Source: Candidatus Bathyarchaeota archaeon
GTDB lineage: Archaea > Thermoproteota > CALKCG01 > B24 > DRYS01
Length of the DNA stretch: 64,000 nucleotides
Direction of reading: 5' to 3'
Assembly: GCA_018396535.1 (NCBI GenBank)
Contig: JAGTQC010000002.1
Span: 71,152 to 135,151 of the forward strand
Notes under the pieces: model-generated
Database searches by the model: none
What the model was told of the DNA's origin: nothing
Seen by the model: the letters and a program-made list of their open reading frames with translations, nothing else
In this document: positions 10,857 through 62,260 of the stretch, in pieces
Layout: every line of letters starts with the position of its first letter
Position numbering within the stretch: the first letter of the stretch is position 1
Program-made: the position numbers and the translations under genes

Positions 10857-10890
10857 GTTAAATAAGACATACGTATATGCTAGTATAGGT

Positions 10891-31762: not shown

Positions 31763-32563
31763 ATGAAGCTACATGGGATACCAGCTAAAAGGATAGCTGT
31801 GATAGCTGTATTCACAGCGCTAACCATAGCGATAGCTAAACTTCTACCGAATATACCTATAGTAGGTTTACCACAAGGCCAGGGTAGTATATCTCCATCG
31901 GTCATCCTCTATCCTATTATGGGGTTAATCCTGGGACCATCCTTGGGGTTAGTAACAGCTTTGATAGCTAATACTATAATCTGGATAATACCTCCTCAAA
32001 CTATATTTGGTCTTCTCACCATACCAGCGGGAGGGGTTGCTGCGTATATTACAGGATCCATAGCTAGAAGGCCTAATACTGGATGGGTAAAAGCTGCTAT
32101 CGTAGCAGCAATACTCATAGGATGCTGGTATGTTACGCCTATAGGGTTTGAAGCACCATTCTACCCGATACCTCTTCATAGTGTAGCTTTAGCTTTAACG
32201 CTAGTATTCAACCGTAGGATTCACACTTGGATAGAGGAATCTGGTAGAGGGTATAGACAGATCCTGGCTTTACTCATAGCATGTTTTGCAGGTATCATGG
32301 CAGATCATATGTGGGGTAACCTTATGTTCATATTAGGAGTAGGCTTATATATACCTATGAAGACTATACGTGACACTCTAAATGCTATAGGTGTCCTAGC
32401 TGTTAAGATGGGGTTACCTAACATACCTCTTAGAGGTCTTGGCGATTTATTTATGGTAATGCTACCAGTTTCAGCTATAGAGAGAGTTATTATGACGATT
32501 ATATCAGCTATGATAGGTTTAGCCGTATTCAAAGCTATGAAAGTTTATCTAATGAGGATATAG
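31763..32563 (+). CDS. Polytopic membrane protein (possible transporter component)
   Basis: 266 aa, six or seven hydrophobic helices, Gly-rich helices. Family not identifiable by eye. Confidence 0.4.
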   Translation: MKLHGIPAKRIAVIAVFTALTIAIAKLLPNIPIVGLPQGQGSISPSVILYPIMGLILGPSLGLVTALIANTIIWIIPPQTIFGLLTIPAGGVAAYITGSIARRPNTGWVKAAIVAAILIGCWYVTPIGFEAPFYPIPLHSVALALTLVFNRRIHTWIEESGRGYRQILALLIACFAGIMADHMWGNLMFILGVGLYIPMKTIRDTLNAIGVLAVKMGLPNIPLRGLGDLFMVMLPVSAIERVIMTIISAMIGLAVFKAMKVYLMRI

Positions 32564-33664: not shown

Positions 33665-35530
33665 ATGAAAAACTATTCTAGGGTAAGCAGTGGATCCATG
33701 CCTAAACATATATCGTGGTGTCTAGATTGCGGTGTACCTCTGCTACAGAAGGTATGCGGAATATGTGGTAGTGTAGGTATAGATGTAAGGCTTACAGGTT
33801 TAGCCGATCCTAGACCTGCTTTCGAGGGGGATATAAAGCATATAGATGAAGGATTGAGGAACAGCTTCGACGTAGGTATTCATGAGGTTGGGTTAGATGG
33901 AGTACCTATAATCGTTAATAGGATACCATATATGGATGAAGCATTTGAGGTAGTAGTAGGCGGAGCTATCATAGCGCATGTATTCTTCGATTTATATATT
34001 CTGAAGTGGAAATTGAAACCATTCAGATGGTTTTGTAAAATCCTACTTGATAAGGGGTTGCTACCTTCTATCAAGTTAAACTGTAAGCCTAAGAGTAAAG
34101 GTGTAATCGAACATCTATCTAATTTCAGTAGCTTAGATCGTGGTTATTTAGCTCTCATAGATAGAGATGGATGCGTGATAGGTTTAGCTGAAGCGGATGA
34201 TAGGCATATATACATCCTTAAAACATGGGGTAGGGAGGAATGTGAGAAGCCTATAATTAGACGTAGAAGCTTAGATGATATTCTTAAAGCAAACGTTAGA
34301 GAAGTGGAAATGGCTAGATCGAGGGCATGCAAATTCACAGTTAAAATGAAGGAGAGATTTCATTCATCGTATCTCACCCTGGCATACTCAGGTGGTAAGG
34401 ATAGTTTAGCTACTCTATCGATAGCATTAGAAGCAGGCTTGGATCCTATACTCATATTTAATGATACAGGACTAGAGCTGCCTGAAACGGTAGATAACGT
34501 TCATAGAGTAGCTGATAGATTCTCCTTAGATATCTTAGAAGCATCGGCAGGGGATTCCTTCTGGAGCTATCTAGACATATATGGCCCTCCAGCTAGGGAT
34601 TACAGATGGTGTTGTAAATTATGTAAGCTGATACCTATGAATAGACTCTATAGAAGGGTTGGTGAAGCTCTAAGCTTCATAGGACAAAGAAGGTTTGAGT
34701 CTAGAAGACGTAGCCGATCTGGAAGTGTAGGACGTAATAAACTCCTACCTAACGTAATCTATTGTGCACCTATAAACGATTGGACTATGCTACATGTATG
34801 GCTATATCTTAGGAGGGTTAAACTCGATTCGTATGCTAACCCTTTATATCGTGAAGGATTCGATAGAATAGGATGCTACCTATGTCCATACTGTAATGTA
34901 GCTGAATTTAGGGAGGTTGAGAGACTGCATGAGGAGCTATGGCATAGATGGATGAAATACATAGATGCATGGGCTTCGAAACATAGCTATAACCAGGTAT
35001 ACGTAGAGAGGCATTTATGGAGGTGGGTTAATATACCATCGAAGATAGCGAATTCTTTCAGTATAAATCGCCCTACTAGGATTGATATAGACGATAAGAT
35101 CGGATACTCTAGGATGAGGTTATGCTATGGTAAAGCTATAAAGCTTAGTATACCTAAATGGTTTGATCTAAGTCTTATGGATACTTCATGCTATATATAC
35201 GGTGTAGATTTCAAGTCGAAGAATGGTCTAGCTATAGCATCATATGATGATTCACGTATATACGTCAATATGGATAGGGGGGAGGCTACAATTATATCGA
35301 GAGATAATGGTTGGAGAATACTTTTGAAAATACTGATTAGACCTATCTTCTGCACGAAGTGCGGTTTATGTATCGATGTATGCCCATCTAAAGCGTTATC
35401 GCTCTCCAATAAATTCTTATTTGAAAGGAGGGTTTGTACTAGATGTGGTCTATGTATGCGGGTATGCCCTTCGATAACTATAGGATTTAGATTCTTATCG
35501 AAGCGTATAGAATCCGCATGCAGTTTATAG
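33665..35530 (+). CDS. PAPS-reductase-like PP-loop ATPase fused to an N-terminal zinc ribbon and C-terminal 2x[4Fe-4S] ferredoxin domain
   Basis: N-terminal 'CLDCG...CGICG' Zn-ribbon. PP-loop 'LAYSGGKDSLATL' with downstream PAPS-reductase-like blocks ('FNDTGLELPET', 'RWCCKLCK'). C-terminal 'CTKCGLCIDVCPS' and 'CTRCGLCMRVCPS' ferredoxin motifs. 621 aa. Confidence 0.65.
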   Translation: MKNYSRVSSGSMPKHISWCLDCGVPLLQKVCGICGSVGIDVRLTGLADPRPAFEGDIKHIDEGLRNSFDVGIHEVGLDGVPIIVNRIPYMDEAFEVVVGGAIIAHVFFDLYILKWKLKPFRWFCKILLDKGLLPSIKLNCKPKSKGVIEHLSNFSSLDRGYLALIDRDGCVIGLAEADDRHIYILKTWGREECEKPIIRRRSLDDILKANVREVEMARSRACKFTVKMKERFHSSYLTLAYSGGKDSLATLSIALEAGLDPILIFNDTGLELPETVDNVHRVADRFSLDILEASAGDSFWSYLDIYGPPARDYRWCCKLCKLIPMNRLYRRVGEALSFIGQRRFESRRRSRSGSVGRNKLLPNVIYCAPINDWTMLHVWLYLRRVKLDSYANPLYREGFDRIGCYLCPYCNVAEFREVERLHEELWHRWMKYIDAWASKHSYNQVYVERHLWRWVNIPSKIANSFSINRPTRIDIDDKIGYSRMRLCYGKAIKLSIPKWFDLSLMDTSCYIYGVDFKSKNGLAIASYDDSRIYVNMDRGEATIISRDNGWRILLKILIRPIFCTKCGLCIDVCPSKALSLSNKFLFERRVCTRCGLCMRVCPSITIGFRFLSKRIESACSL

Positions 35531-35670
35531 AATCGATCCCTTATCTTCACGTATATATTTTATACCTGCTAACTTTATATCCTGATAGCTTATCGTGTAT
35601 GACATGCATAGAAAGGTGTTATAACGATGTTTAAGAAGCTGCTATACAATATCCCTTGGAGGGTTAGCGT

Positions 35671-36957
35671 TTGACCAGAATCATAGATATACCATACATA
35701 TCTAGAGTCGAGGGAAAAGGCTCTCTCGAAATAAGGATAAGTGGAGGAACTATAGAAGATTTAAAGTTTAAGATACATGAAGCACCTAGATTTTTTGAAG
35801 CATTCCTAATTGGTAGAATGTATTATGAAATTCATGAAATAGTATCTAGGATATGTGGCGTATGCCCTGTAACTCATCAGATAACAGCTTTAAAATCTAT
35901 CGAGAAGATACTAGGTTTAGAGCTACCTGAACACATACACCATCTTAGAGAGCTTATGGCTATAGGTGGCATACTAAGCAGTCATGCTCTACACCTTTTT
36001 GCTATGGCTCTACCAGACTATACTGGCCACCCAGATATTATAGCTATGGCTAGGGATTATCCCGATGTGATTAAAACTGGCTTCAAGATCAAAGAGGTGG
36101 GAGATAACCTAGTCGAGATAATAGGTGGTAGGAGTGTACATCCAGTATCTACGATCGTAGGGGGCTTCACATCTATACCTACACATGAAAGGCTAAGGAG
36201 GTTTAAGGATAAACTCATAGAAGCTAAAAACCTAGCTTTAAAATATTCAAGCTTTATAGTTAATCTCGACTATCCTACGTTCGAACGTAGATCTGAGCAT
36301 ATAGCTTTCTACGATAGTGAGGATTACCCCATAAATAGCGGAGTAGTAAAGTCTACCGAAGGGTTGGAAATAACAGAAGACGAGTACAGGCGATGGATAT
36401 ATGAAGTTGAGGTAGGATACTCCAACGCTAAGCATTCGTATGTAAGAAATAGGGGTAGCTTTATGGTGGGTCCTCTCCCACGTGTAAATATAAACTATCG
36501 TAGCCTATCGGATGATGCTAGAGATATATTATCTTCAAGCCCGTTTAAGTTTCCATGCTTCAACCCGTTTGCATCTAACATAGCTAGATTAGCTGAGATA
36601 GTGACGCTGATAGATAAGGCTCTAAGGATTATAGATGAGAAGAAGTTGGAGGGGGTATCGCATGTGAAGCTTGAACCTAGAGCTGGGGAGTCATCCTCTA
36701 TAACAGAGGCTCCTAGAGGTATAAATTTCCATAGCTATAGACTAAACGATGATGGCGTAGTTACGTATGCATCCATAGCTCCACCTACATGTCAGAATGC
36801 AGCTAATATAGAGGCGGATTTAAGGGTATATCTTAAAGAGTATCTAGATAGGAGCGATGAAGAGATAGTTCGTAAAAGTGAGATGCTTATTAGAGCGTAT
36901 GACCCATGTATCTCATGCGCAACCCACTTCCTAGAAGTTAGAGTATCAAGAGTATAG
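35671..36957 (+). CDS. [NiFe]-hydrogenase large (catalytic) subunit, group-3/sulfhydrogenase-alpha-like size
   Basis: N-terminal 'ITRIEG'-type start ('ISRVEGKG') and L1 Ni-binding motif 'RICGVCPVTHQ' (RxCGxCxxxH). C-terminal L2 motif 'DPCISCATH' is followed by a 9-aa tail consistent with endopeptidase maturation. 428 aa. Confidence 0.8.
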   Translation: MTRIIDIPYISRVEGKGSLEIRISGGTIEDLKFKIHEAPRFFEAFLIGRMYYEIHEIVSRICGVCPVTHQITALKSIEKILGLELPEHIHHLRELMAIGGILSSHALHLFAMALPDYTGHPDIIAMARDYPDVIKTGFKIKEVGDNLVEIIGGRSVHPVSTIVGGFTSIPTHERLRRFKDKLIEAKNLALKYSSFIVNLDYPTFERRSEHIAFYDSEDYPINSGVVKSTEGLEITEDEYRRWIYEVEVGYSNAKHSYVRNRGSFMVGPLPRVNINYRSLSDDARDILSSSPFKFPCFNPFASNIARLAEIVTLIDKALRIIDEKKLEGVSHVKLEPRAGESSSITEAPRGINFHSYRLNDDGVVTYASIAPPTCQNAANIEADLRVYLKEYLDRSDEEIVRKSEMLIRAYDPCISCATHFLEVRVSRV

Positions 36958-36963
36958 TTTAGT

Positions 36964-37893
36964 TTATTCGAAGTATGGCTTCCTCCTAGCTATAGCTAAT
37001 AGGAAAAGCTTCTTAAGATCCTCTCTACTAGCTCCACATCTTATAGCCTCCACTATATTCACATGATTATCATAGCGTAGTAAACATGGTTTAAGTTCTC
37101 CTCTAGATGTAACCCTCAATCTATCACAATACTTACAGAAGGTAGGGTTATGCATAGGTTTCACAAGTTCAACTATTACACCATTGGGTAGAACATATCT
37201 AGGTCTAGCATGACTACTCCTACAATATTTAGCTATAGCTATCCTAGATAGAAGAATTTCGACTCTATCTAGCGACACATGAAATTTATCGTATAATTCG
37301 TTATCCACTACACCTACTTTTTCAAATTCTATAACCTGTAGCACTGCTCCAACATTAGCGGCATATCCTATCATATTTGGAATATCATCCTCATTCAAAT
37401 CTTTCAATAAAACCATATTTATTTTGACAGGGGTTAAACCAGCGTCTACAGCGGATTTAACCCCATCTAGAACTCTATCCAGAAGATCGAAACCTGTAAT
37501 AATCCTGTAAGTCTCCTTATTAATGGTATTAACAGTTATATTGATACGCTTTAACCCAACCTCTTTAAGCTTATATGCATAATTGGATAAAAGTACACCA
37601 TTAGTAGTCATCGAAACCTCCTCAATACCATCTAGACTAGATATACGGTAAATGAGATCCACTATATCCTTTCTCAGCAATGGTTCACCACCAGTAATCT
37701 TAACTCTACTTAAACCAAGTTCTGCACCTATACTTACTATAGATACGAGTTCATCTATATCGACATCACAATTCATACCTACACTATAATTCTCCCCTTC
37801 TCTATGACAATATATACATCTGAGATTACATTTATCAGTAACAGCTATCCTAAGCGTCGTCAATCTTCTACCATAATCATCTACAAGAGACAA
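36964..37893 (-). CDS. moaA: GTP 3',8-cyclase (molybdenum cofactor biosynthesis MoaA)
   Basis: 'CNLRCIYCH' radical-SAM motif, 'ITGGEPLLR', and the C-terminal second-cluster cysteines 'CKYCDRLRVTSRGELKPC'. Confidence 0.85.
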   Translation of the reverse strand: MSLVDDYGRRLTTLRIAVTDKCNLRCIYCHREGENYSVGMNCDVDIDELVSIVSIGAELGLSRVKITGGEPLLRKDIVDLIYRISSLDGIEEVSMTTNGVLLSNYAYKLKEVGLKRINITVNTINKETYRIITGFDLLDRVLDGVKSAVDAGLTPVKINMVLLKDLNEDDIPNMIGYAANVGAVLQVIEFEKVGVVDNELYDKFHVSLDRVEILLSRIAIAKYCRSSHARPRYVLPNGVIVELVKPMHNPTFCKYCDRLRVTSRGELKPCLLRYDNHVNIVEAIRCGASREDLKKLFLLAIARRKPYFE

Positions 37894-38067: not shown

Positions 38068-38430
38068 TTGAGGGCGAATAACGTGGCATCTGTATCCTTT
38101 AAAGCTATCGTAGTCGGTAAGATTCTGGAAAAACTCCCAAGTGGAGAGGAAGTTGTACGTATAGATTTGGCTGAAGAAAAGCCTGCTACTCCACCCATAA
38201 TTATGGATACTAGTAGGCTTGAACAATCTGAGATAGCTAGAGAAGTTATACCAGTAGTAAGTCAAGTACTAGCATCTCTACCTATATCTCGTGCTACTAT
38301 AAGAGTACCTAGAGTTACGATCGTACTCACTATGGATGAGTGGGGTCAGCTAAAATCTAAACCTGATCTAGGAGATGAAATGACGGTAACGATAGAGGGG
38401 GATAGTATACACGTATCTAAATCCATCTAA
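38068..38430 (+). CDS. Hypothetical protein
   Basis: 120-aa ORF. No motif. Confidence 0.3.
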   Translation: MRANNVASVSFKAIVVGKILEKLPSGEEVVRIDLAEEKPATPPIIMDTSRLEQSEIAREVIPVVSQVLASLPISRATIRVPRVTIVLTMDEWGQLKSKPDLGDEMTVTIEGDSIHVSKSI

Positions 38431-41871: not shown

Positions 41872-43143
41872 CTATAGATAGTCTTGAATATTCCGCTGGT
41901 ATAATTCACGTCTAAGTAGATGGCTATGCTTTACCCATACCTTTAAAGGTATTTCAAGACTACTAGATATGATTGATAAAGCTTCTTCTATACTTTGACA
42001 TACTATCGGCTTCTTCCTCAAAGCATTGCGTACATGCTCTCTCACATGCCATACACCTACAGGCATAATATACCCTGGATGTATTTCTCTAAGTATCAAA
42101 ACCGAAGCTTGCCTCATTATAGAGTTGAGATACTCTGCAACCGCAAGTCTAGCAGCGTAGTAGCATCCACCGATGATAGCGTAATTCTTCTTACCATGAT
42201 AACCTTCCCAATCTCCTTCAATAACTGGGATCCTACCATCCGGGTTCCAGACGGTTTTAGGATACCATGCTTCTATAGATTCATAGCTCCAAAAACTAGG
42301 CATCATCAATATCTTGAATCGATTATCGAGATATACAGATTCAAATAATAGGTATGTAGAGATAGGCGGATAATGCTTAACCTTTTCTAGAATCCTTTCA
42401 GATATTATAGAATCTACAGCAGTTATACTCCATCTAGTAGGTACCAGCCTACGGTTGGATCCTATACCGAATATACCTAGACTAAAGGCTTTCTGTATAG
42501 AGCTTACCGATACACCAGATCTATATAGATCGAAAACAGCATCCGCAGCTTTGATATCCCTATCATAGTAAATCTTCTCCATACGTCTATCAACATAGAT
42601 ATTACCCCCAGGTATGATTCTAGATAAAGGAGCAGATATACCCAACGGCTGAACCTCGTCATCTAATACTATAGAGGCTCTAGGCTTACTAGCAAGCTTA
42701 ACCTCTAGATCAACTGGTTTATAGGACATAGCTAACTCTTGAAGAGTTACTAGAAGACTATCTGGGTTAGCAGCTGAATCGACACGCATAAGTCTTTCAC
42801 CTCTTAAAAGTATACTACGAAATCTAACTATATCTTCTATAGACATACCAAACCAGTATTCAGGAGTATCTAGTATCCGTGTATCACCTTTAAACGGAGG
42901 TGTTAAAGGCCCGACATATACTTTAGGATAGCCAAACCTACCTACAAAAACACCTGGAGGGGAGGATCCTTCAACATCGAGTTTATCGAAATACCTTACT
43001 GCCTCATACATAATGCTAGCTCTAACTATTACAGGACACCTACTCTTACCACAAAGTAGATGCGCACCCTTACATATAACGCATAACCTACTAGATCTTT
43101 TAGTATCGATAAGCTTACTATTGATGTCTAGAAACCAGTTCAT
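41872..43143 (-). CDS. NreA-like protein (COG1602, DUF650/DUF651 archaeal DNA-repair-associated family), tentative
   Basis: N-terminal 'LCVICKGAHLLCGKSRCP' Cys motif that I associate with the Nre family. 423 aa. Confidence 0.45.
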   Translation of the reverse strand: MNWFLDINSKLIDTKRSSRLCVICKGAHLLCGKSRCPVIVRASIMYEAVRYFDKLDVEGSSPPGVFVGRFGYPKVYVGPLTPPFKGDTRILDTPEYWFGMSIEDIVRFRSILLRGERLMRVDSAANPDSLLVTLQELAMSYKPVDLEVKLASKPRASIVLDDEVQPLGISAPLSRIIPGGNIYVDRRMEKIYYDRDIKAADAVFDLYRSGVSVSSIQKAFSLGIFGIGSNRRLVPTRWSITAVDSIISERILEKVKHYPPISTYLLFESVYLDNRFKILMMPSFWSYESIEAWYPKTVWNPDGRIPVIEGDWEGYHGKKNYAIIGGCYYAARLAVAEYLNSIMRQASVLILREIHPGYIMPVGVWHVREHVRNALRKKPIVCQSIEEALSIISSSLEIPLKVWVKHSHLLRRELYQRNIQDYL

Positions 43144-46229: not shown

Positions 46230-47978
46230 ATGGAGTCTATGTATAGGGATTACCCGGTAATTCTAGAAGATGTCTCATTTACCTATGAGGGATCTGATAA
46301 ACCTGCGTTAAAGGATATAGATTTAAGGATTAGGAGGGGGGAGGTTACAGCTATACTTGGTAGAACAGGATCTGGGAAGACTACTCTGATATACGTTATG
46401 GGTGGGGTTATCCCGAACTATGTTAAAGGTAGGCTTAGAGGATGCATCCTAGTCGAAGGTTTAGATACTAGGGAGCATCCACTCTACGAGCTAGCTATGC
46501 ATATAGGTGTAGTTATGGATGATCCTGAAGCACATATAGTCTCCTTCACGGTATGGGAGGATGCAGCCTTCGGTCCATCAAACCTAGGTCTACCTAAAGA
46601 TGAAGTTATGAAGAGAATCGAATTCGCTCTAGATGCAACGAGGCTGGGAGCTCTAAGATATAGGAATCCATACAACCTATCAGGAGGTGAGAAGCAGAGC
46701 TTAGCTATAGCTGGAGTCCTATCCATGATGCCTAACATTATAGCTCTAGATGAACCAACCTCCATGCTCGATCCACTAGGTAGTATGAGAGTCCTATCCA
46801 TCCTAAAGGATTTGAATAAAAGGTATGGCATAACGATAATCCTATCAAGCTTCGATGCTGAGGAAGCTGTAGAGCTTGCAGATAGGATCATAGTATTAGA
46901 TAAAGGCGAGGTAGTTATGGATGGAGATACTAGAGATATACTACAAGAAGCGGATATACTCGAAAAAATCGGTATACGCATACCAGATGTTTCTAAGCTT
47001 ACGATGAAGCTCAAGATGGATAACCTATGGAGCGGAGATATAGCTATAAATATAGACGAAGCATTCAAACGTATAGTAGATATACTCAGAGATAGACGAG
47101 AAACCCCACCCAGACCTAACCCATACAAAGAAATCGAGAAGCCTAGAGAACCCATAGTAAAGGTTAGAAGATTATCGCATACATATCCGGGAGGTGTTAA
47201 AGCTCTACAAGATATAAACCTAGATATCTATAACGGAGAATTCGTAGCTTTAATAGGGCAGAACGGATCTGGAAAAACAACTCTTGCAAAATACCTATGC
47301 GGATTACTTAAGCCTAGAGATAGATATACAGAGATAATAGTTGATGGCCTAGATCTAAGGAATGCTAGGATGAAGGATATAGTTAAGAAGATAGGCTACG
47401 TCTTCCAGATACCTGAACAACAGCTATTCTTCACAACTGTTAAAGAAGAGATAGGATTCGGCCTCAGGAATCTCGGACTCCCAGAAGATTATATAGAGGA
47501 TAGAGTCGAAGAGATAATGAGAATCCTAGAACTAGAAGCTTATAGAGATAGCGTTACATCATCACTCGATAGAGGGAGGAAGTTTCGTGTAGTACTAGGA
47601 TCAGTCATAGCTATGGATCCGAAGATTATAGTAGTCGATGAACCTACCACAGGTCAGGATTGGATAGAATCCACGTATATATGCAGACTCCTAGATGATC
47701 TAAGAAGGAGAGGAAAAACCATAATCATGATCACACACGAGATGGAGCTGGTCGCTAGATTCGCTACCAGAGTTATAGTTATGCGTGAAGGTAGAGTAAT
47801 CCTAGACGGCACTCCTAGATACGTATTCTCCAAACCAGAGATACTAAGATCCACATGGGTTCAACCCCCACAGATAACGAGGCTAAGCCAGATGCTATCT
47901 GAATACGGTATACCAGGGGATACCCTATCCATAGAGGAGATGTACAGCTATATAGTACACATGCTGAGGGGGGTGTAG
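46230..47978 (+). CDS. ECF/cobalt-type ABC transporter ATPase with duplicated nucleotide-binding domains (EcfA-EcfA' fusion)
   Basis: Two full NBDs: Walker A 'GRTGSGKTTL' and 'GQNGSGKTTL', signatures 'LSGGEKQ' and 'SLDRGRK', Walker B 'IALDEPTSMLD' and 'IVVDEPTTGQD'. Confidence 0.85.
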   Translation: MESMYRDYPVILEDVSFTYEGSDKPALKDIDLRIRRGEVTAILGRTGSGKTTLIYVMGGVIPNYVKGRLRGCILVEGLDTREHPLYELAMHIGVVMDDPEAHIVSFTVWEDAAFGPSNLGLPKDEVMKRIEFALDATRLGALRYRNPYNLSGGEKQSLAIAGVLSMMPNIIALDEPTSMLDPLGSMRVLSILKDLNKRYGITIILSSFDAEEAVELADRIIVLDKGEVVMDGDTRDILQEADILEKIGIRIPDVSKLTMKLKMDNLWSGDIAINIDEAFKRIVDILRDRRETPPRPNPYKEIEKPREPIVKVRRLSHTYPGGVKALQDINLDIYNGEFVALIGQNGSGKTTLAKYLCGLLKPRDRYTEIIVDGLDLRNARMKDIVKKIGYVFQIPEQQLFFTTVKEEIGFGLRNLGLPEDYIEDRVEEIMRILELEAYRDSVTSSLDRGRKFRVVLGSVIAMDPKIIVVDEPTTGQDWIESTYICRLLDDLRRRGKTIIMITHEMELVARFATRVIVMREGRVILDGTPRYVFSKPEILRSTWVQPPQITRLSQMLSEYGIPGDTLSIEEMYSYIVHMLRGV

Positions 47979-48815
47979 ATGGTACTACTCGAGTATGAAG
48001 CTAAGGATACAGTTATACATAGATTAAACCCTATAGCGAAAGCCGTATGGTTCGCATGCTGCACGATACTATCCACACTATACCTAGAACCACAACCTCT
48101 AATAATACTAGCAGCCCAGATAGCTATGATAGGATACCTATCTAAGGTGCCATGGAGTAAACTAATCTCCAGAGCCTGGTGGGCATATATAGGTTCACTA
48201 CTCGGAGGATACACCGTATCGCTTTGGATAACAAGCCCAGAACAGCTTTGGAGAATACCGCCAGAGTATGGATGTAAAGTCCTACTAGAAGTTACACCTA
48301 AAGGAACACCTATCATAGGATACACAGCTATAACATATGCTGGCCTACTATGGGGTACAACAGTCACCATGAAGATAGCTTTAGCCGTAACAGCCGCATG
48401 CATACTAACCTATACAACACCGATATCCGATATAGTATCCATATTAGGGAGGATACTACCCTACAAAGCCTCATTCATAGTGATGACAGGTGTAAGATTC
48501 TATCCAGTCCTACTAGAGAGGATACAGGGAATAGTAGATGCAGCTAGATCTAGAGGATGGGAATCCTCCTATAGGAACCCGGTTAAAAAAGTTCGATCAC
48601 TATACACGATAGTCTTCCCATCAATCAGGGAGGCTATACTCCTATCCGAACGAATGAGTCTATCGATAGAATCTAGAGCTTTCGGAGTTAAGAAACCTAC
48701 ACCTATCAAAACCCTAGCCTTAGATAGAAGCGATATACTCTTCATAACATTCATCTCCTCATTCACAGGTCTACTAGCCTATATGTGGAGCGTGTACGGG
48801 TTTGGAATGCTATAG
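47979..48815 (+). CDS. ECF transporter transmembrane (T) component, CbiQ/EcfT-like
   Basis: Begins 1 nt after the ATPase stop. 278 aa with five or six TM helices and a conserved 'RxxP' region ('YRNPVKKV'), followed by the 'A(R/L)xxRG' motif region 'ARSRGWES'. Confidence 0.7.
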   Translation: MVLLEYEAKDTVIHRLNPIAKAVWFACCTILSTLYLEPQPLIILAAQIAMIGYLSKVPWSKLISRAWWAYIGSLLGGYTVSLWITSPEQLWRIPPEYGCKVLLEVTPKGTPIIGYTAITYAGLLWGTTVTMKIALAVTAACILTYTTPISDIVSILGRILPYKASFIVMTGVRFYPVLLERIQGIVDAARSRGWESSYRNPVKKVRSLYTIVFPSIREAILLSERMSLSIESRAFGVKKPTPIKTLALDRSDILFITFISSFTGLLAYMWSVYGFGML

Positions 48816-49499: not shown

Positions 49500-50303
49500 G
49501 TGTCTATAAAAACCACTAGGAGAATAGAACTCTGGACACCGAGAAGAGTAACTAGAGCAGCGATAATAGGAGCATTATCCGGTGCTACATCACTTATACC
49601 CGTCCCGGTTATGCCAGGCATGACCCTAGATCCTGCTATACCAGCATTCGCAGCCGTATACTACGGGCCATTCGAAGCATACTGGGGCTACGCTATAGGC
49701 CAGCTTATCAGATCCCTTATAAGAGATCCAGGCGTACTTATGATAAATCCTCTAAACTTCATGTTTGGAACACCATTCTTCATGATAATCATAGCATGGC
49801 TTGTCAGAGTGGTGAAATACCCATGGAACATCCCTGCTAGCATAGCTCTAGGCATCCTCATGCATATGCTCTCCTACGCTATACCAGGCTGTATAATAAC
49901 CTATGGCTGGGCTGTCTTCCCGACATGCTTCATACTTCAGATGATCGGCTGCGCTATAGTCATATCCGTCTGCCTAATAATAGCTTTGGGAGGAGCAGTC
50001 TATATGTGGAGGATACGTAGACAACCCATGTTCCCACATAGATTCATAGATAAGGATGAGGAATTCTCGATAGCGAGTAAGGGGAGGATACTAGCATCAG
50101 CTATAGCCGCCGTAATCCTATTCATCATCCCATACATCTTCCTAGCAACACCCTACTCCTCTGATAGATACCTTGGACCACCAGAATCCCCTCTACGCAG
50201 ATACATAGATGCCTATATAAGGCATCCAATGACTGCAGGCTTAGGCTGGCTATGCTGGGAGCTATACAAGAAGCATGGGGAATGGTTTAAGATAACAGAG
50301 TAG
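49500..50303 (+). CDS. Polytopic membrane protein, possible ECF substrate-capture (S) component
   Basis: 267 aa, six hydrophobic helices, Gly/Pro-rich first helix. It sits last in the ECF operon. Substrate unknown. Confidence 0.4.
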   Translation: MSIKTTRRIELWTPRRVTRAAIIGALSGATSLIPVPVMPGMTLDPAIPAFAAVYYGPFEAYWGYAIGQLIRSLIRDPGVLMINPLNFMFGTPFFMIIIAWLVRVVKYPWNIPASIALGILMHMLSYAIPGCIITYGWAVFPTCFILQMIGCAIVISVCLIIALGGAVYMWRIRRQPMFPHRFIDKDEEFSIASKGRILASAIAAVILFIIPYIFLATPYSSDRYLGPPESPLRRYIDAYIRHPMTAGLGWLCWELYKKHGEWFKITE

Positions 50304-50329
50304 ATCTAGGGATAGATGTATAGCATTAC

Positions 50330-51838
50330 CTAGACATCATCCCTTACAATCTTCAAAGCTAACAATCTAGCAGCAGCTTCAAACTCCCATCTTAAATCCC
50401 CTATGAATGATACCTTATGCCAGCCGAATATGCTTTGATCATGCTTCTCCAATATCCTACCAGCATCATCCTCCACAACCAGCTTATCCCTACACGCCTT
50501 CTCATCCTCTATTAAACCTAAACTCCTACCATAACGGATACATATCGATCTATGGAGAACACTAACCTTAACAGTTGTAACAGGTTCACCTTTCGGAAAC
50601 CTAACTATAGGAGATGCTCCTATAAAGTGCGCCTCACCATGCCTATCTATACAATAGCTTAGAGGAGGCTCACGGCATCCATAGAGTCTAGTAGGTGATG
50701 TACAATGTAGATAGATAACCCTGTTACCAGCTAGATCTAGACAGTAGTTCCCGACCATACCTGGACGATCAGCTAGATACATACCTAGAAGAAGTGTAAC
50801 AGCTGAATCCATATCAGCTTCACATACAGCTACTATCCCCTCATCGTTAAGCTTAGAGAAGGCCATGCATGGCAGTATAGGCATCTTACCTGATAACAGT
50901 ACTGGGAAGCATTCAATACCGATAGCATCGCATCCTCTATCTCTGAGAAGATTCTTCAACGCTAGGTAAAGCCTAGCCGCACATACTATAGGATAACGGG
51001 CCACCCTGTTCTCCTCAGCCTCCCTTATCCATCCATCAGCTACACCTTCAGCCTCCTCTACACTAACAGCCTCCCAGTAATCTAGAAGTTCACCAGGATC
51101 TATCCTAACAAGCTCTAAACCAAAGATATCCTTTAAATTGCTTCTATAAAGATCCTCATTCCTCCTCCATTGTAAAGCCTGATCCACACCATGAACATCG
51201 ACAGCGAAGCTATCCGGGAAGATATAGTACTTGATAAGCATATCCCTAACCTCTACCGGCAACCCCTCAGCCTCCAGCATCCCAACCATCCTCCTCCTAT
51301 CCTCCTCGCTTCTCGAAACCTCAGCTTCATCAAAGGTAACCACTAGAATCCTCCTCCCCCTCATATCGTACAGCCTCTTCATAACCTCCAAAGCTCTCTC
51401 TACATCCTCAAAATTTGGTGAAGATACAGGGAGAACGGGGAGACCCCTACCTCTAACCCTCTCATAGATCCTTATAAACCCCCAATCCCCACCATACATA
51501 AAGCTAGCTAGTATCGTAGGCTTACCTATCTCTATAGCTTCAACTCCTATATCATCTATCGTAGGGTTTGTCCCATAATTACCCACGACATATAGAAGAA
51601 GACCATCAGACTCTCTTACCCCCTTCTTAATTTCCCAACTATCCTCACGACTATACCTCCAGATAACCCTACCCCCTGTGAACTCTACATCAGGAAACCT
51701 TACCCTTAACCTCTCAACTATGGATTTACATAACCCACCCTCATCGTATCCTATATAGGGCCAACCAGGCCCCCATCTACCCTTACCTAGAAAAAGAACG
51801 TATACCTTCATACGTATCGACGTATACCATACATCCAA
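50330..51838 (-). CDS. Putative sugar isomerase (L-fucose/L-arabinose isomerase-like, tentative)
   Basis: 502 aa. The N-terminal 'KVYVLFLG...' Rossmann-like start resembles the FucI/AraA N-domain. Heads a minus-strand cluster with a TIM-barrel sugar isomerase, GH4, GH29 and GH31. Assignment is by context and weak similarity. Confidence 0.3.
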   Translation of the reverse strand: MDVWYTSIRMKVYVLFLGKGRWGPGWPYIGYDEGGLCKSIVERLRVRFPDVEFTGGRVIWRYSREDSWEIKKGVRESDGLLLYVVGNYGTNPTIDDIGVEAIEIGKPTILASFMYGGDWGFIRIYERVRGRGLPVLPVSSPNFEDVERALEVMKRLYDMRGRRILVVTFDEAEVSRSEEDRRRMVGMLEAEGLPVEVRDMLIKYYIFPDSFAVDVHGVDQALQWRRNEDLYRSNLKDIFGLELVRIDPGELLDYWEAVSVEEAEGVADGWIREAEENRVARYPIVCAARLYLALKNLLRDRGCDAIGIECFPVLLSGKMPILPCMAFSKLNDEGIVAVCEADMDSAVTLLLGMYLADRPGMVGNYCLDLAGNRVIYLHCTSPTRLYGCREPPLSYCIDRHGEAHFIGASPIVRFPKGEPVTTVKVSVLHRSICIRYGRSLGLIEDEKACRDKLVVEDDAGRILEKHDQSIFGWHKVSFIGDLRWEFEAAARLLALKIVRDDV

Positions 51839-51846
51839 TATAAGAT

Positions 51847-52734
51847 TTACTCGATCGTAACCCAGGGACAGGTATTCCTCAAAACATCTAGAGATCTCTT
51901 CGAATCTCTAAGCGAAAGCTCGAAGACTATAGGCCCCCTAAACCCCTTAAATTGCAGATACTTCATAAACTCTACTAGCGGTAGATCGCCTTCACCTAAC
52001 GGTAGATGATCCCTCCTGATAGCTAGCCCATGCTCTACCCTGAAGAAGCCATCATGCAGATGTATCTCGATAAGCCTATCGTAATGCTTATCAAGGAAAT
52101 CCATAATCGAAAGCTCATCCGAGAAGCCTGCTAACAGATGCCCGGTATCCAAGCATATAGATAGATCGAATCTATCTATAGCTTCCCTCGTAAGATCGAA
52201 CGGGAATTCCACATTCTCCACAGCTATCTTCCGTGAAGGAATATCTATCTTCGATACTATCTCCTCTAAGCTTCGTATAGAATTTGATAGCATACCCTTA
52301 TTGACTATATATTTGTAAGATCTAGGGATATTAAGCCTAGTAAACTCTGATGCAAGAGCCCCTGTAATATGGATCACATAGCATTCAGGGTTAAGATCCT
52401 TAGCTAACTCTATAGAGTGGACCATACTCTCTACAGACCCCCTCCTAACGAACGGGTTTGGAGAAGCAAGCTCTACGCTCCATAACGGTAGATGAACACT
52501 ATAGGTGATACCTAAACTCTCACCTAGATCGATAAGCTTTCTAAAAGTATCCTTTTTTAGAGATCCAGGAAGTATGTATTCTATATCCATAGTTAACTCT
52601 ACATGGCGGAATCCCTCCATCACGGATGTTATACAGAAATCTGGGAAGCTGAATTTCGATAGATCAACCGAGAATCCATCTACTATCCTCTGCATAACAT
52701 CGAGGAATTGGAGAGGCTGTACACCAAACCTCAA
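51847..52734 (-). CDS. Sugar phosphate isomerase/epimerase (xylose-isomerase-like TIM barrel)
   Basis: 'HVIHITG', 'IAVENVEFP', 'ICLDTGHLLA' and 'IEIHLHDGF' metal-binding blocks of AP-endonuclease-2/xylose-isomerase-like TIM barrels. Confidence 0.65.
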   Translation of the reverse strand: MRFGVQPLQFLDVMQRIVDGFSVDLSKFSFPDFCITSVMEGFRHVELTMDIEYILPGSLKKDTFRKLIDLGESLGITYSVHLPLWSVELASPNPFVRRGSVESMVHSIELAKDLNPECYVIHITGALASEFTRLNIPRSYKYIVNKGMLSNSIRSLEEIVSKIDIPSRKIAVENVEFPFDLTREAIDRFDLSICLDTGHLLAGFSDELSIMDFLDKHYDRLIEIHLHDGFFRVEHGLAIRRDHLPLGEGDLPLVEFMKYLQFKGFRGPIVFELSLRDSKRSLDVLRNTCPWVTIE

Positions 52735-52747
52735 TACATACCACCGA

Positions 52748-54033
52748 TCAGCTCAGCCAAGGTATCCACTTAGCTTCAGCTTTAAACATCTCGTTAACCA
52801 TCTCCTCGATCTCTCTAGGTGTTAGAATAGCCGATGTTAGAGGATCGAACATTATAGCTTCTACAACAGCGGTCCTATCCTTCTCTAAAGCTGCTTTAAC
52901 AGCTAGCTCCTGGACGTTTATATTAGTCCTGTTCAAAGCTGCACATTGAGGGGGGAGATCCCCAACGTAGCATGGATGGATACCCCCTCTATCCACCATA
53001 CAGGGTACCTCTACACAGCATCCATATGGAAGGTTAGTTATCAACCCTCTATTCTCGACATTACCGTTTATACGGCATACCCTACCCGTCTCCATAGAGT
53101 ATATTACATCTATACCGTATTCATCTGATCTGTTAATCTCTATAGGCTCCTCCCCTCTTATCTGCCTCTCTATACGTTCAAAATGCGGCTTCCAGCGGGT
53201 CTTACATATCTCTAGGTAGAACCATCTAGGTTCACAGTATCTTCTACGTCTCTCCTCGTTGGTCCTGAAGTATGGGATGTACTCGCTTAGATGATGACTC
53301 GACTCTGTTATAAAGTATCCGAGATACTTCATCATCTCGAATCGAACCTTATCCTTCTCGTATATCTCCCTATTCTCCATAGCCTTCCAGAGTAGTGGGT
53401 ACGCATCCCTACCTCTATACTTGAATTCTAGGAAGAAAGCTTGGTGATTAATACCAGCAACCCAGTAGTAGACATCCTCGTATGGCACTCCTATATAGCC
53501 TGCTAGAGTCCTCGCCGTCCCCTGAACACTATGACATAACCCTACATTCCTTATCTTAGTAGCTCTATTCATAGCCCAGCAGTTGATCGCCATAGGGTTA
53601 GCATAGTTTATCAGAAGGGCATCCGGGCATAGATCCTCCATATCGTAGCATATATCTAGTAGAACAGGTATGGTTCTAAGCCCTCTAAAAACACCTCCAG
53701 GACCTATAGTATCACCAACCTCCTGGTTTACACCATACTTTAAGGGTATGTATATATCATACTCGAAAGCCTCCAACCCACCTACCTGGATCATCACTAT
53801 AACATAATCCGCTCCATCTAAAGCCTCTCTCCGATCTAGAGTCGATTGTATCTTCAAGCCTGACGCATACTTAGAGGCAAGCGTATATGCAAACCTCGTT
53901 ATCACATTAAGACGCTCAGCATCTATATCCATAAGGGATATCGTGGAGTTTCTAAGCTCGGGATGATACACTATATCCGTGAGTAGACGACTAGCAAAAA
54001 CAACGCTTCCAGCACCGATGAAGACTATCTTAG
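52748..54033 (-). CDS. Glycoside hydrolase family 4 (second paralogue)
   Basis: 'GLCHSVQG' Cys-His motif, 'NYANPMAI', 'VLLDICYDME'. The ORF-track start (53971) lacks the Rossmann N-terminus. The same frame upstream encodes 'AKIVFIGAGSVVFASRLLTDIVYHPE', so the real start lies about 54000-54035 with a non-ATG initiator. Confidence 0.75.
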
Positions 54034-54352
54034 CCGTGAAACATACACCTCCACAAACAATATAGAGGTAGCAGCTTTACCTGATTTAAATAATTCCTAA
54101 ACACTCCATTAAGTAACGCATATAGATTAGTTTAGCTAAGAGAATTAGGCTATAACCATCATCCTCATCTATTCTAGAATACAAAATCGATATATTACTA
54201 GCGAACGTAGAATAATCCATGAGTCTATCCTAGAATACATCTCATATCCTCAAACCTCAAATAAACCTATACCAGTACCGCCTACCGATACATCCACACA
54301 GATTATGTATAATCCGCTTCAGGCTCTAAGCAACTCTACATAAGGTTACACT

Positions 54353-55891
54353 CTACTTCTCTCTAAGCTTCCTAACCAGTATCCTAGATACTACTATACC
54401 TTTCACAGTCTGGCTAGGTATCTCTATCCTAAGAGCTTCATCCTCATAGCTCCACCTAGGCTTCTCCCTTAACCCAACTATATCTACGTCTAATATTTCT
54501 TCATCCTCATCTATCAGTCTCAGGTTTCTAGCTAGAGATCTAAAGCTTATAACTCTAGATCCGTTAGACCCTACCGGGTATATAGCATATACTACACTAC
54601 CCGTAGGATATAGATCCCTCGCCGTATATCGTACATCACCTTCTACGAATCTAACACCCCTCTCTGTGAAGAATCCTCCTCTACCTATACGTGTAGGCCC
54701 CTCACCGTAGACCCTCCATACTCTTGTACCGTATATAGCCTCCCCATATAGCTTAAGCCATCCACCTATACTAGATAATATCTTCCTCTGCTCTTCCGGT
54801 ATCACCCCATCCGGGGATGGGCCTATATTCAGTAGGAATACACCATTCTTACTTACAACATCCACCATATGCCATATTATGCTTTCAGGAGTCTTATACT
54901 CTGCATCCCTTATATAACCCCAAGATCTATAATCTACCGATGTATCAGCTAGCCATGGCGAGGATCTAAGCCTAAGTATAGTCCCTCTCTCAGCTAGATC
55001 AGGTATAGCAGCTCCATCTGGGAAAGCCCCATGCTTATACACTATGACAGGTTCAAACCCCCAGCTTTCACATCTATTATAGTAGTATGCTGCGAAAGCC
55101 TTCAGGTACGGCTCAAACGCAGGATTAGCTATCCACCAATCGAAGTAAACTAATCTAGGCCTATACTTCTCTACCACCTCAACTATTCTTAATAACCAAT
55201 CCATCAGGAATTCATCATCCGGAGGTATGTTATCTGGTCCTACAGGAGCTCTAGGATCTGTAGATGCAGGCTTAGCTGGACCGTATAAATCCATATACCT
55301 AGGATCGTTCACATCTGAATCTATACGTGTACCAGGTTCGAAAAACCACCAATGCTCAGCTCTATGATACGATACACCGAATATAAGCCCCACCCTCTCG
55401 ACAGCTTCCTTCAACTCTCCAATTATATCCCTTCTAGGACCTATCTTAGATGCACACCATCTAGTATACCTAGAATCCCATAGAGCATAGCCATCATGAT
55501 GCTCCGCTACGGGTACTACGAATCTAGCACCCGATTCTTTGAATAATCTAGCCCAACTATCTGGATCCCAATTAGCAGCTGTAAACATGGGTATGAAATC
55601 CTTATAACCGAAATCCTTCGGCGTACCGAAGTTTCTATTGTGGAAATCGTATTCAGGTTTACCAGGCATATACATGTGTCTAGGATACCATTCATTACCA
55701 TACGCTGGGACGGAGTATACACCCCAATGTATGAATATACCTAGCTTGGAATCTACAAACCATGACGGAACCCTATAATTCTTAAGAGAGCTCCATGAAG
55801 GCTCATAGGATCCGCTTGTAGGAGCAGGTATACTCTTGAATATATCGTATGGATCAACCATGATATACACCTTCACTTGACTATGTAACAT
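54353..55891 (-). CDS. Alpha-L-fucosidase (glycoside hydrolase family 29)
   Basis: 'SWFVDSKLGIFIHWGVYSVPAYGNEWY' and 'HHDGYALWDS' are signature GH29 blocks. 512 aa. Confidence 0.85.
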   Translation of the reverse strand: MLHSQVKVYIMVDPYDIFKSIPAPTSGSYEPSWSSLKNYRVPSWFVDSKLGIFIHWGVYSVPAYGNEWYPRHMYMPGKPEYDFHNRNFGTPKDFGYKDFIPMFTAANWDPDSWARLFKESGARFVVPVAEHHDGYALWDSRYTRWCASKIGPRRDIIGELKEAVERVGLIFGVSYHRAEHWWFFEPGTRIDSDVNDPRYMDLYGPAKPASTDPRAPVGPDNIPPDDEFLMDWLLRIVEVVEKYRPRLVYFDWWIANPAFEPYLKAFAAYYYNRCESWGFEPVIVYKHGAFPDGAAIPDLAERGTILRLRSSPWLADTSVDYRSWGYIRDAEYKTPESIIWHMVDVVSKNGVFLLNIGPSPDGVIPEEQRKILSSIGGWLKLYGEAIYGTRVWRVYGEGPTRIGRGGFFTERGVRFVEGDVRYTARDLYPTGSVVYAIYPVGSNGSRVISFRSLARNLRLIDEDEEILDVDIVGLREKPRWSYEDEALRIEIPSQTVKGIVVSRILVRKLREK

Positions 55892-55913
55892 AGATATAGC
55901 AATTTAAATAGTT

Positions 55914-58169
55914 CTAGGATATTTTCACCTCAACCTCCTTTCCATCATATTTAACCACCCTATCAGGTATAACAGTCTCCTCAACACCGATACCATATCC
56001 ATCCCTAACGAATACTATATGGAAGGATCTCTCCCTTAACATACCAGGATAGCCCCCCTCCCTCGCACCTATAATCAACCTACCTTCATCTTCAAGCCAT
56101 GTAATAGGGGTTAGGCTATATTCACCCCTCTCGTAGCTATATGTTTCTCCATCATCTTCGTATAACGTGAAGCTAGCATCAGCTCCACGGTATACTCTAA
56201 CCTCTATAGGGTTCCAAGGCTTCTCCTTCGCATACTGTAGCGGCGGAGCCATAGGTATTATAGATCCAGCTTTAACATGGAGCGGGATTATGTCTATAGG
56301 CGTAGGTGTTTCGATCCATACCCCTCCATTCATATGTCTTCCAGTCCAGAAATCGTACCACCCACATATACTCCTAGGTAGATAGATCCACCTAGCCTTA
56401 ATCTTGGGAAGGGTTACAGGACTAACCATTATAGCGGATCCAAACATATACTGGTCATCTATATCGGCTACCCTAGTATCCATTCTGAAATCCATTATTA
56501 ACGGTCTCATAAACGTATAGCCTTCCTTCGTAACCCTCCATGCATGAGAATATATGTATGGTAGCAGCCTATACCTCAACCTGATATACTTAACAAGTAT
56601 CCTCTCATACTCTGATCCAAACCTCCAAGGCTCCTTAGCATACGTCGTCCCATGCACTCTGAAAATAGGGCAGAAGGAGCCCCACTGAAACCATCTGGCG
56701 AATATTTCCCTATACGAGTCGGTCTCAGGGTTACCGCTAAAGAACCCGCCTATATCTGTAGTCCAGTATGGTATGCCTGAGATAGAGAAGTTCAACCCTG
56801 CAGCTATCTGCTCCCTAAGTATACCCCAATCGTGGCATATATCCCCAGACCATGTTATAGCCGAATATCTCTGCTGACCTGTGAAAGCTGATCTAGTAAG
56901 TATAACTACACGTTTATCCGAGATGCTACGCTGCCCTTCATAGACGGCTCTAGTCGTCATAAGCGAGTATGCGTTCAGATACCTAGCACCCGAACCTATA
57001 GCCGTAGTCGATGAATGGAATGGTGTATAGAACGAAGCCCATCCTACACCAGTCTCGGGTTCTGTCGCATCAAGCCACCATCCATCCACGCCTATATCGA
57101 AGAAGCTTCTCCTAATATACTCCCAATACAATTTCCTAGCCTCCTCGTTGAAGGGATCATAGCATCTAGTACCAGGGCATATGAATCCTCTACTCTCCAT
57201 ATCCTTATAGATATCCGTCTCCTCACCGAATATCGGCCATATGGAGATTAAAATACGTATGCCAAGCTCATGTAGATCCTTAACCATCCCAGCTGGATCT
57301 GGGAAGGATTCCTCATCGAACTTAAAGGCATTCCATCCATATTTACCCCAATATTTCCAATCCAATACTATGATATCGATAGGTATACCTTTACTCCTAA
57401 AGGTTCTAGCAACCTCTAGAATCTCATCCTGAGTCTTATATCTCTCCTTAGATTGCCAGAATCCATAAGCCCATATCGGTAGTAGAGGTGGATCACCAGT
57501 TAGCTTACGATAGGATGATATCACATCATCTATACTTGGGCCATAGATTAGATAGTAGTCTATAGCATCCGAAGCTTCAGACCAAAACTTAATCTTACCA
57601 AAACCGTTATCGGCGAAGTTTTCGAATCGAGTCATAGAGTAGTTATCCCATAGTATACCGTAGCCTCTACTAGATACTAGGAATGGTATAGCTACATCCC
57701 AATTCCTCTGTATAAGCGTGATACTACGACCCCTATAATCGAATATACCTGGATGCTGCCCTAATCCATAGAATCTCTCATCCATAGATACTCTGAAGGT
57801 TTGTTCTACACTATAAGTCTCCCCATCGGGTAGCTCGATAGAGGTTAGTGATCTAGAATCCTCGACGATAATCGGGGATCCATACAGGTCGTAGAACTCT
57901 ATAAGCCCAGTATCAAGATCTACCGATGCCTTCAACTTATCGGTGGCTACCGTAATCCTGGAAGGCTCCCTTCGTATCTTCCAATCAACCTGTTTCAAAG
58001 ATGTATTAATAACCGATAGACTGCTATCCCCGGGTAGCTTAGAGCTTAGAGTATAGGTTACACGTATAACGTTATCGCTACAGATCTGCAGCCTCATCCT
58101 ACCCTCTGGATGCATATAGAACGTAATCTCCCTTAATCCTCTACTATAGGATTTTACAGTAAATGGCAA
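55914..58169 (-). CDS. Glycoside hydrolase family 31 (alpha-xylosidase/alpha-glucosidase, YicI-like)
   Basis: 'GIPIDIIVLDWKYW', catalytic-nucleophile block 'GVDGWWLDATEPE', acid/base block 'GIPYWTTDIGGF', and 'FRVHG'. 751 aa. Confidence 0.85.
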   Translation of the reverse strand: MPFTVKSYSRGLREITFYMHPEGRMRLQICSDNVIRVTYTLSSKLPGDSSLSVINTSLKQVDWKIRREPSRITVATDKLKASVDLDTGLIEFYDLYGSPIIVEDSRSLTSIELPDGETYSVEQTFRVSMDERFYGLGQHPGIFDYRGRSITLIQRNWDVAIPFLVSSRGYGILWDNYSMTRFENFADNGFGKIKFWSEASDAIDYYLIYGPSIDDVISSYRKLTGDPPLLPIWAYGFWQSKERYKTQDEILEVARTFRSKGIPIDIIVLDWKYWGKYGWNAFKFDEESFPDPAGMVKDLHELGIRILISIWPIFGEETDIYKDMESRGFICPGTRCYDPFNEEARKLYWEYIRRSFFDIGVDGWWLDATEPETGVGWASFYTPFHSSTTAIGSGARYLNAYSLMTTRAVYEGQRSISDKRVVILTRSAFTGQQRYSAITWSGDICHDWGILREQIAAGLNFSISGIPYWTTDIGGFFSGNPETDSYREIFARWFQWGSFCPIFRVHGTTYAKEPWRFGSEYERILVKYIRLRYRLLPYIYSHAWRVTKEGYTFMRPLIMDFRMDTRVADIDDQYMFGSAIMVSPVTLPKIKARWIYLPRSICGWYDFWTGRHMNGGVWIETPTPIDIIPLHVKAGSIIPMAPPLQYAKEKPWNPIEVRVYRGADASFTLYEDDGETYSYERGEYSLTPITWLEDEGRLIIGAREGGYPGMLRERSFHIVFVRDGYGIGVEETVIPDRVVKYDGKEVEVKIS

Positions 58170-58264
58170 ACCTAATCCAACACCCCGATCATAACGTAGA
58201 TCAGATTACTATATAATAATCTTATGGCTGACTATGTACGTCTTAAAAGGAATAATTGTCGGAT

Positions 58265-62147: not shown

Positions 62148-62260
62148 ACCTACAAATATATGGCGTGAATCTCTGAAGAACCTTCCACCTGAAAGGATAT
62201 TAGAAGAACATATATGTGTGGTGCGTGAGCTTTTAGCTAGGCTGTTAAGGTGATGTAGGT

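Follow-up and report, generated by a model that had tools for sequence, protein, structure and literature searches.

The 64-kb stretch of DNA analysed here (64,000 nucleotides, positions 71,152 to 135,151 of contig JAGTQC010000002.1, assembly GCA_018396535.1 of a Candidatus Bathyarchaeota archaeon; below, the window) contains hydA, a gene encoding the large subunit of a [NiFe]-hydrogenase. With a probability of about 85%, hydA encodes the alpha subunit of a group 3b hydrogenase whose operon is split, the genes of the beta, gamma and delta subunits forming a cluster hydB-hydG-hydD at a second locus of the same genome. A canonical set of partners thus exists, and no novel partner is needed for HydA. 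The enzyme class is a known one; the gene arrangement is unusual, although it is unremarkable as to mechanism.

The hydA gene and the class of its product

The hydA open reading frame (ORF) is intact. The product matches the Pfam family NiFeSe_Hases (PF00374) with 88.8 bits (cut-off 25.8) and carries both Ni-Fe ligand motifs and a nine-residue C-terminal tail (Table 1), which agrees with the initial annotation of this region as containing a complete 428-aa large subunit. The three ORFs described there, hydA and its two neighbours, are all present. Both ligand motifs are retained in 11 of the 11 HydA relatives checked, and the first one, L1, is found in all orthologues (P0001-P0007, P0009, P0251-P0254). 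The second motif, L2, aligns with DPCISCSVH of the alpha subunit of Pyrococcus furiosus sulfhydrogenase I (SHI), and in PDB the 424-aa P. furiosus chain 9e15_B stops precisely at the histidine aligned to His419. Cleavage by a HycI-type endopeptidase is predicted to remove the tail following His419.

Among the NCBIfam models, the highest scores are those of sulfhydrogenase HydA (293 bits) and ShyA (281 bits), followed by VhuA (172 bits) and FrhA (143 bits). The best match in PDB is the alpha subunit of P. furiosus SHI (9nez_D, E 1.9e-78, residues 5-421 against 8-426), and the next one is the alpha subunit of the cytosolic NiFe-hydrogenase of Thermococcus kodakarensis (5yxy, E 4.8e-72). The alpha subunits of both the P. 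furiosus enzyme (HydBGDA; PDB 9nez, 9e15) and the T. kodakarensis enzyme align with HydA end to end. The N-terminal RVEGKG element, both cysteine-pair motifs and the short C-terminal tail are shared with SHI alpha. The large subunits of the group 3c enzyme Mvh (MvhA, PDB 5odc) and the group 3a enzyme Frh have the fold family and the motifs in common with HydA, but the matches are clearly weaker (MvhA E 2e-58, FrhA E 1e-41 or worse). A group 3d enzyme matches with E 4e-41.

The genomic context of the homologues is of the same kind. The gene of a relative with 65% identity (P0006) belongs to an operon with the order HycI, beta, gamma, delta, alpha and with nikR nearby, where beta contains the Fer4_22 domain, gamma contains NAD_binding_1 and DHODB_Fe-S_bind, and delta contains Oxidored_q6. 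The gene of a more distant relative (P0009, 51% identity) likewise occurs in the order beta-gamma-delta-alpha. In both these operons the delta and alpha genes overlap by 4 bp. As the best matches are group 3b alpha subunits and the relatives sit in beta-gamma-delta-alpha operons, hydA, judged from sequence comparison, encodes the alpha subunit of a group 3b (HydA-type, NAD(P)-linked) sulfhydrogenase. Assignment to group 3c or 3a was rejected in view of the relative scores and the operon context of the homologues; the surroundings of hydA showed no context of Hdr, MvhD or FrhB. The initial annotation had placed the protein in groups 3 or 4 by its size, and this was right, the more exact position being group 3b. 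Group 3b hydrogenases have been listed in the Bathyarchaeia order B26-1 in a survey of archaeal metagenome-assembled genomes (MAGs) from Tengchong hot springs (PMC11094006); the MAG of the window is not established as a member of this order or of that survey.

Absence of partner genes in the window

Within the window, hydA is an orphan. Searches with tblastn using the beta, gamma and delta subunits, HycI and NikR of the nearest canonical operon produced no match in the entire 64 kb. No family of the Oxidored_q6, HycI, NikR or Hyp type appears in the Pfam and NCBIfam labels of the scanned ORFs, which cover nearly all ORFs of the window and approximately 9 kb past its left end. The earlier statement that no small-subunit or hyp genes occur near hydA is thus borne out for the window as a whole. 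A word-based search for HycI homologues gave two matches only.

The HydA protein is residue-for-residue identical in 21 contigs, among them those of four NCBI MAGs (GCA_038860835.1, GCA_038846255.1, GCA_038841175.1, GCA_038840715.1), where it is annotated as 'Ni/Fe hydrogenase subunit alpha [Candidatus Bathyarchaeia archaeon]'. The gene order around hydA is repeated in independent NCBI, ENA and Logan assemblies, and thus the orphan arrangement is not an accident of assembly.

The distal hydBGD locus

The missing subunits were found with the delta subunit of an intact operon of 'Thermofilum sp. ex4484_15' (NJEH01, L007/L013). The search retrieved a delta subunit (P0124) with 65% identity from Bathyarchaeia MAGs. 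Its gene belongs to a beta-gamma-delta cluster containing no alpha: delta is followed by a spacer of 214-237 bp and then by a gene encoding a PALP-domain protein. A scan of contigs with the same L007 delta by exact eight-residue patterns, which was too strict, returned the query's own contig only.

On another contig, two MAGs bearing the identical alpha gene contain a HydD-type small-subunit gene, as was expected under one of the options of the initial annotation, a small subunit encoded elsewhere. In GCA_038846255.1, alpha is on JAWBQB010000009.1, and the delta gene (P0241), preceded by intact beta and gamma genes, is on JAWBQB010000007.1; hence the genome bearing alpha also encodes the delta subunit and the beta and gamma diaphorase subunits. 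In GCA_038841175.1, alpha is on JAWBUJ010000008.1 and delta (P0242) is on JAWBUJ010000038.1, a contig that begins just upstream of delta. Further, the accessions of alpha and of delta members from the 90% cluster of P0124 are close in number in four series (MBS7641956/MBS7642287, MEM2323458/MEM2324154, MEM2165017/MEM2164872, MEM1558659/MEM1559636), each of which we read as one assembly.

The NCBIfam names of the distal proteins are HydB/ShyB, HydG and HydD/ShyD, and the locus adjoins gatCAB. HydB is an AsrA-like Fe-S protein. HydG has FAD/NAD(P)-binding and 2Fe-2S domains. HydD is a NuoB-like small subunit with proximal, medial and distal clusters; it retains the CxxC, GxC and GCPP positions, and all 13 of its 13 cysteines are identical between species. 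Together with alpha, all subunit types of the Thermococcales group 3b enzymes are therefore encoded in the genome of the window: AsrA-like beta, FAD/NAD-binding gamma, NuoB-like delta and alpha. Unlike in the Thermococcales enzymes, hydA is separated from hydBGD, and the enzyme is known from the genes of a Bathyarchaeia MAG rather than from a Thermococcales isolate.

One might suppose a binning artefact, the beta-gamma-delta contigs coming from a co-occurring organism and the bearer of alpha having no small subunit. Indeed, the evidence for co-residence comes from MAGs throughout, and no single contig read carries both loci. On the other hand, both loci were binned together in two independent MAGs, and in two further accession series alpha and delta are separated by a few hundred to approximately a thousand numbers. 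The tetranucleotide profile of the hydBGD locus correlates with that of the window at r = 0.954. The corresponding values are 0.981 for the two halves of the window, 0.965 for the likely sister species, and from -0.01 to 0.70 for unrelated loci. All four subunits are equally diverged from those of the L007 operon (alpha 64.6%, beta 60.0%, gamma 65.8%, delta 64.8% identity), which argues that alpha shares its history with beta, gamma and delta and is not a foreign acquisition. Finally, beta-gamma-delta clusters without an alpha gene of their own occur in three species-level variants, and this is sensible only if alpha resides elsewhere in the genome. A binning artefact is thus very unlikely.

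Conservation and history of the split operon

Both halves of the arrangement are found in other species. The order PP-loop gene, alpha, convergent moaA (here alpha is again without the other subunits) is repeated at the locus of an orthologue with 79% identity, where approximately 8 kb of upstream synteny is conserved along with the convergent moaA. The cluster hydBGD without alpha is also present in a species with 82%-identical delta, likely a sister species; there, on a 580-kb contig, delta is directly followed by a convergent gene of the major facilitator superfamily (MFS).

The ratio of nonsynonymous to synonymous substitution rates (dN/dS) of alpha, computed against the 79%-identical orthologue at synonymous divergence near saturation, is 0.066. 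In the same comparison of species it is 0.063 for ribosomal protein S3Ae, 0.157 for the PP-loop gene and 0.146 for moaA. At the distal locus dN/dS is 0.13 for beta, 0.08 for gamma and 0.14 for delta. Both halves of the split operon are under strong purifying selection. This bears on the possibility that the orphan alpha gene is a functionless, decaying relic of operon break-up, as its isolation from every partner and maturation gene in the window could suggest. A relic would hardly be expected to have an intact reading frame, both ligand motifs in every orthologue, a protein sequence identical in 21 contigs, and dN/dS below that of both adjacent genes. We consider a relic extremely improbable; the view of hydA as a pseudogene was rejected because of the dN/dS value.

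In more distantly related Bathyarchaeia-type MAGs the operon is intact. The L007 operon of 'Thermofilum sp. ex4484_15', with alpha 65% and beta, gamma and delta 60-66% identical to those of the window's genome, and the L009 operon of GCA_038882875.1, with 51%-identical alpha, both have the structure hydBGDA with the 4-bp delta-alpha overlap; in L007 this is closely preceded by hycI and nikR. In the clade of the window, on the contrary, delta is followed by the PALP-domain or MFS gene and alpha is at another locus. The alpha-only and the alpha-less loci are both conserved with low dN/dS, and the break between hydD and hydA can accordingly be placed in the ancestor of a genus-level clade of Bathyarchaeia from hot springs, selection maintaining both halves.

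What is mildly notable is where the operon was broken: exactly between the small- and large-subunit genes, with both halves still under strong purifying selection in the species compared. Exceptions to the adjacency of these two genes are rare, and their translation is often coupled. A precedent for genes of a soluble multimeric [NiFe]-hydrogenase spread over more than one locus is provided by the scattered hox genes of the cyanobacterial group 3d enzymes. However, hoxY and hoxH stay adjacent there, whereas here it is the small and the large subunit that are separated. We found nothing directly comparable in the literature on orphan or split large subunits, which is no proof of novelty.

The case calls for caution: a [NiFe] large subunit found alone within 64 kb, or on the contig of a MAG, does not by itself point to a new partner or a new class, and pipelines calling hydrogenases by operon context should heed the split arrangement.

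Several observations weigh against a split group 3b operon. Firstly, all four subunits score under the NCBIfam equivalog cut-offs; for alpha the scores are 293 against 880 (HydA) and 281 against 700 (ShyA). We take these models to represent the Thermococcales enzymes, and thus the low scores are no argument against group 3b. Contiguity of the four structural genes, which is typical of group 3b, although not strictly defining, is absent here. Secondly, the break has left no trace: there is no alpha remnant 3' of delta and no delta remnant 5' of alpha. A tblastn comparison of alpha with the spacer between delta and the PALP-domain gene, and of beta, gamma and delta with the spacer 5' of alpha, yielded noise (best E 0.07-0.3). 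Thirdly, hypA-F and hycI were not found in the approximately 100 kb of the genome that are visible. Finally, MAGs are bins, and the case for both loci residing in one genome is built on binning, on the order of accessions, on composition and on congruent divergence, not on a closed genome.

A gene with Nre_N and Nre_C domains lies at 41872-43143 (minus strand), its counterpart in L007 being at 1956-3203 (plus strand) with 42% identity between the two proteins. It lies 5-6 kb from hydA whether the operon is split, as here, or intact, as in the 65%-identical relative. Molybdopterin genes are also near hydA in both cases, moaA in the window and moaE, thiS and thiF in L007. This hints, weakly, that it was hydBGD that moved, hydA having remained in its ancestral surroundings.

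Proposed expression and assembly

The spacer upstream of hydA contains GGAGG nine nucleotides before the TTG start codon. The 79%-identical orthologue has a spacer of 169 bp (L011 7832-8000), likewise with GGAGG just before the start. This suggests that hydA has its own translation signals. It probably has its own transcription signals as well, including a putative promoter in the spacer.

Transcription, maturation, assembly and activity may then be envisaged as follows. The hydA gene would be expressed from its own signals, and HydA would be translated off its own ribosome-binding site. The Hyp machinery would supply the NiFe(CN)2CO centre, and a HycI-type protease would trim the nine-residue tail after His419. 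Trimmed HydA would bind HydD, and with HydB and HydG the two would form the NAD(P)-linked heterotetramer that is usual for the group. The assembled enzyme would be a cytosolic, bidirectional, NAD(P)-linked group 3b hydrogenase. In [NiFe]-hydrogenases the maturation of the large subunit comes before its association with the small subunit. Since the large subunit matures before meeting the small one, separation of the genes should be no mechanistic obstacle.

Table 1. Features of the hydA locus and its immediate neighbours (window coordinates)
Feature	Coordinates	Strand	Remarks
hydA, alpha (large, catalytic) subunit of group 3b [NiFe]-hydrogenase	35671..36957	+	428 aa, TTG start
L1 Ni-Fe ligand motif RICGVCPVTH, residues 60-69	35848..35877	+	regular expression on translation
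L2 Ni-Fe ligand motif DPCISCATH, residues 411-419	36901..36927	+	regular expression on translation
C-terminal tail FLEVRVSRV, 9 residues, predicted HycI-type cleavage after His419	36928..36954	+	cleavage inferred
140-bp AT-rich spacer 5' of hydA with GGAGG at 35658-35662	35531..35670	+	sequence
Zn-ribbon / PP-loop (PAPS_reduct) / 2x[4Fe-4S] protein, PRK13795-like; neighbour, outside the hydrogenase	33665..35530	+	likely start 33698
moaA (GTP 3',8-cyclase), convergent, stop 6 bp from hydA stop; neighbour, outside the hydrogenase	36964..37893	-	TIGR02668

The PP-loop/ferredoxin neighbour

The gene upstream of hydA had been described as encoding a 621-aa fusion of a Zn-ribbon, a PAPS-reductase domain and a ferredoxin. 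The domains are as described: the N-terminus carries CxxC...CxxC, the PAPS_reduct domain (PF01507) occupies residues 238-408 (E 5.8e-39, 134 bits, cut-off 22.5), and the C-terminal 2x[4Fe-4S] ferredoxin domain residues 556-603. The length needs correction. The MAG gene calls use Met12 and the family alignments begin at residues 13-16, and thus the gene probably starts at the ATG at 33698 and encodes 610 aa.

Alignment to the PRK13795 models of NCBIfam ('hypothetical protein') spans the whole protein, with scores under their equivalog cut-offs. In an exhaustive HMMER search of 50% clusters, 3204 representatives matched at E<=1e-3, and 282 did so at E<=1e-30; among the best 150 matches listed, many are full-length, approximately 600-670 aa. 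In 26 members of the family, SGGKDS (S242-S247), Cys316, Cys404/Cys407 and eight ferredoxin cysteines are invariant. No full-length solved structure matched the protein. Rather than a lineage-specific fusion, it represents a large and widespread family of putative Fe-S PP-loop enzymes that have a constant architecture and are still named 'hypothetical protein' in NCBIfam. In one MAG, GCA_038841175.1 (L004 8368-8463, approximately window 34133-34265), the gene is called in two pieces of 189 and 465 aa. There, two blocks overlap by approximately 130 bp in window coordinates with approximately 95 unaligned bases between them, and the gene is intact in the other assemblies; the pattern suggests either that a piece was duplicated locally or that the assembly is at fault.

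The initial annotation had proposed this protein as a novel Fe-S partner, that is, as an unconventional electron-transfer partner of orphan HydA replacing the small subunit. In its favour are the co-directional position of the two genes 140 bp apart, their adjacency in the 79%-identical orthologue, and the two ferredoxin-type clusters of the neighbour. However, the same MAGs contain a canonical HydD with all cluster cysteines, under purifying selection. The neighbour belongs to the large family considered above, which has a constant full-length architecture. No hydrogenase alpha, beta, gamma or delta gene was found in any of 80 metagenomic loci of this family, 45 of which exceed 8 kb in length with flanks of at most 5 kb included; moaA was found in one. 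HydA relatives in intact operons do not have the PP-loop neighbour. Moreover, a ferredoxin domain does not have the NuoB-like fold that sets the proximal cluster against the large subunit.

The adjacency itself is limited to the split-operon clade. It is accounted for by common descent of the neighbourhood as a whole, which is syntenic between close species. Conservation of the two genes as neighbours, which the initial annotation had suggested checking, holds in the 79%-identical orthologue and, with no case among the 80 loci, does not extend beyond close relatives. A known class with distal partners, named beforehand as the finding that would speak against a novel pairing, is what was observed. 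We consider it highly improbable that the PP-loop/ferredoxin protein replaces the small subunit, and HydD encoded at the distal locus remains the preferred partner.

A different question is whether hydA came to lie beside the PP-loop/ferredoxin gene by adaptation or by accident. The sole other species whose hydA locus was read, that of the 79%-identical orthologue, retains this arrangement. If it were adaptive, co-transcription might link H2 metabolism to any sulfur or nucleotide chemistry of the PP-loop protein, or this protein might mature or regulate the large subunit. We regard an adaptive move as very doubtful.

Other features of the window

The product of the downstream convergent gene passes the cut-off of the NCBIfam archaeal MoaA model TIGR02668 (359.9 against 325.25 bits), in agreement with its previous identification as moaA. 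Next to it, a 120-aa ORF at 38068-38430 (plus strand) matches Pfam Arcadin_1 (E 7.6e-25, 87.5 bits, cut-off 25), a family that belongs with crenactin, the cytoskeletal actin system of Thermoproteales. No recognisable actin-family (crenactin) gene was seen in the Pfam labels within 10 kb on either side of this ORF.

Components of an energy-coupling factor (ECF) type transporter are dispersed around hydA on the plus strand: a putative S component with weak ECF_trnsprt/ECF-ribofla_trS matches (31763-32563), a 582-aa double ABC ATPase (46230-47978), and a CbiQ/EcfT protein (47979-48815).

At 62170-62182 the window does not have approximately 1.9 kb that are present in contig JAWBQB010000019.1 of GCA_038846255.1 (L109 12049-13952). 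Owing to this deletion, a DUF6785/DUF6784 gene of 702 aa is reduced to a 170-aa remnant (ORF 61635-62147). The adjacent GFO_IDH_MocA gene is represented by a 155-aa ORF (62261-62728) with four alignment gaps and encodes at least 328 aa in L109, where it reaches the contig edge. The deletion may be either a strain-level gene loss or a sequence error.

A co-directional run at 7573-14736 (plus strand) encodes a 631-661-aa SMC_N/AAA_23 ATPase, a 1281-aa Peptidase_S8 protein, and two proteins of 259 and approximately 181 aa with no domain matches. A carbohydrate-use block on the minus strand (50000-58200) contains genes for GH4, a xylose-isomerase-like TIM barrel protein, alpha-L-fucosidase and GH31. 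Its G+C content is 0.42-0.445, compared to 0.38-0.40 around hydA, and its GC skew is strongly negative.

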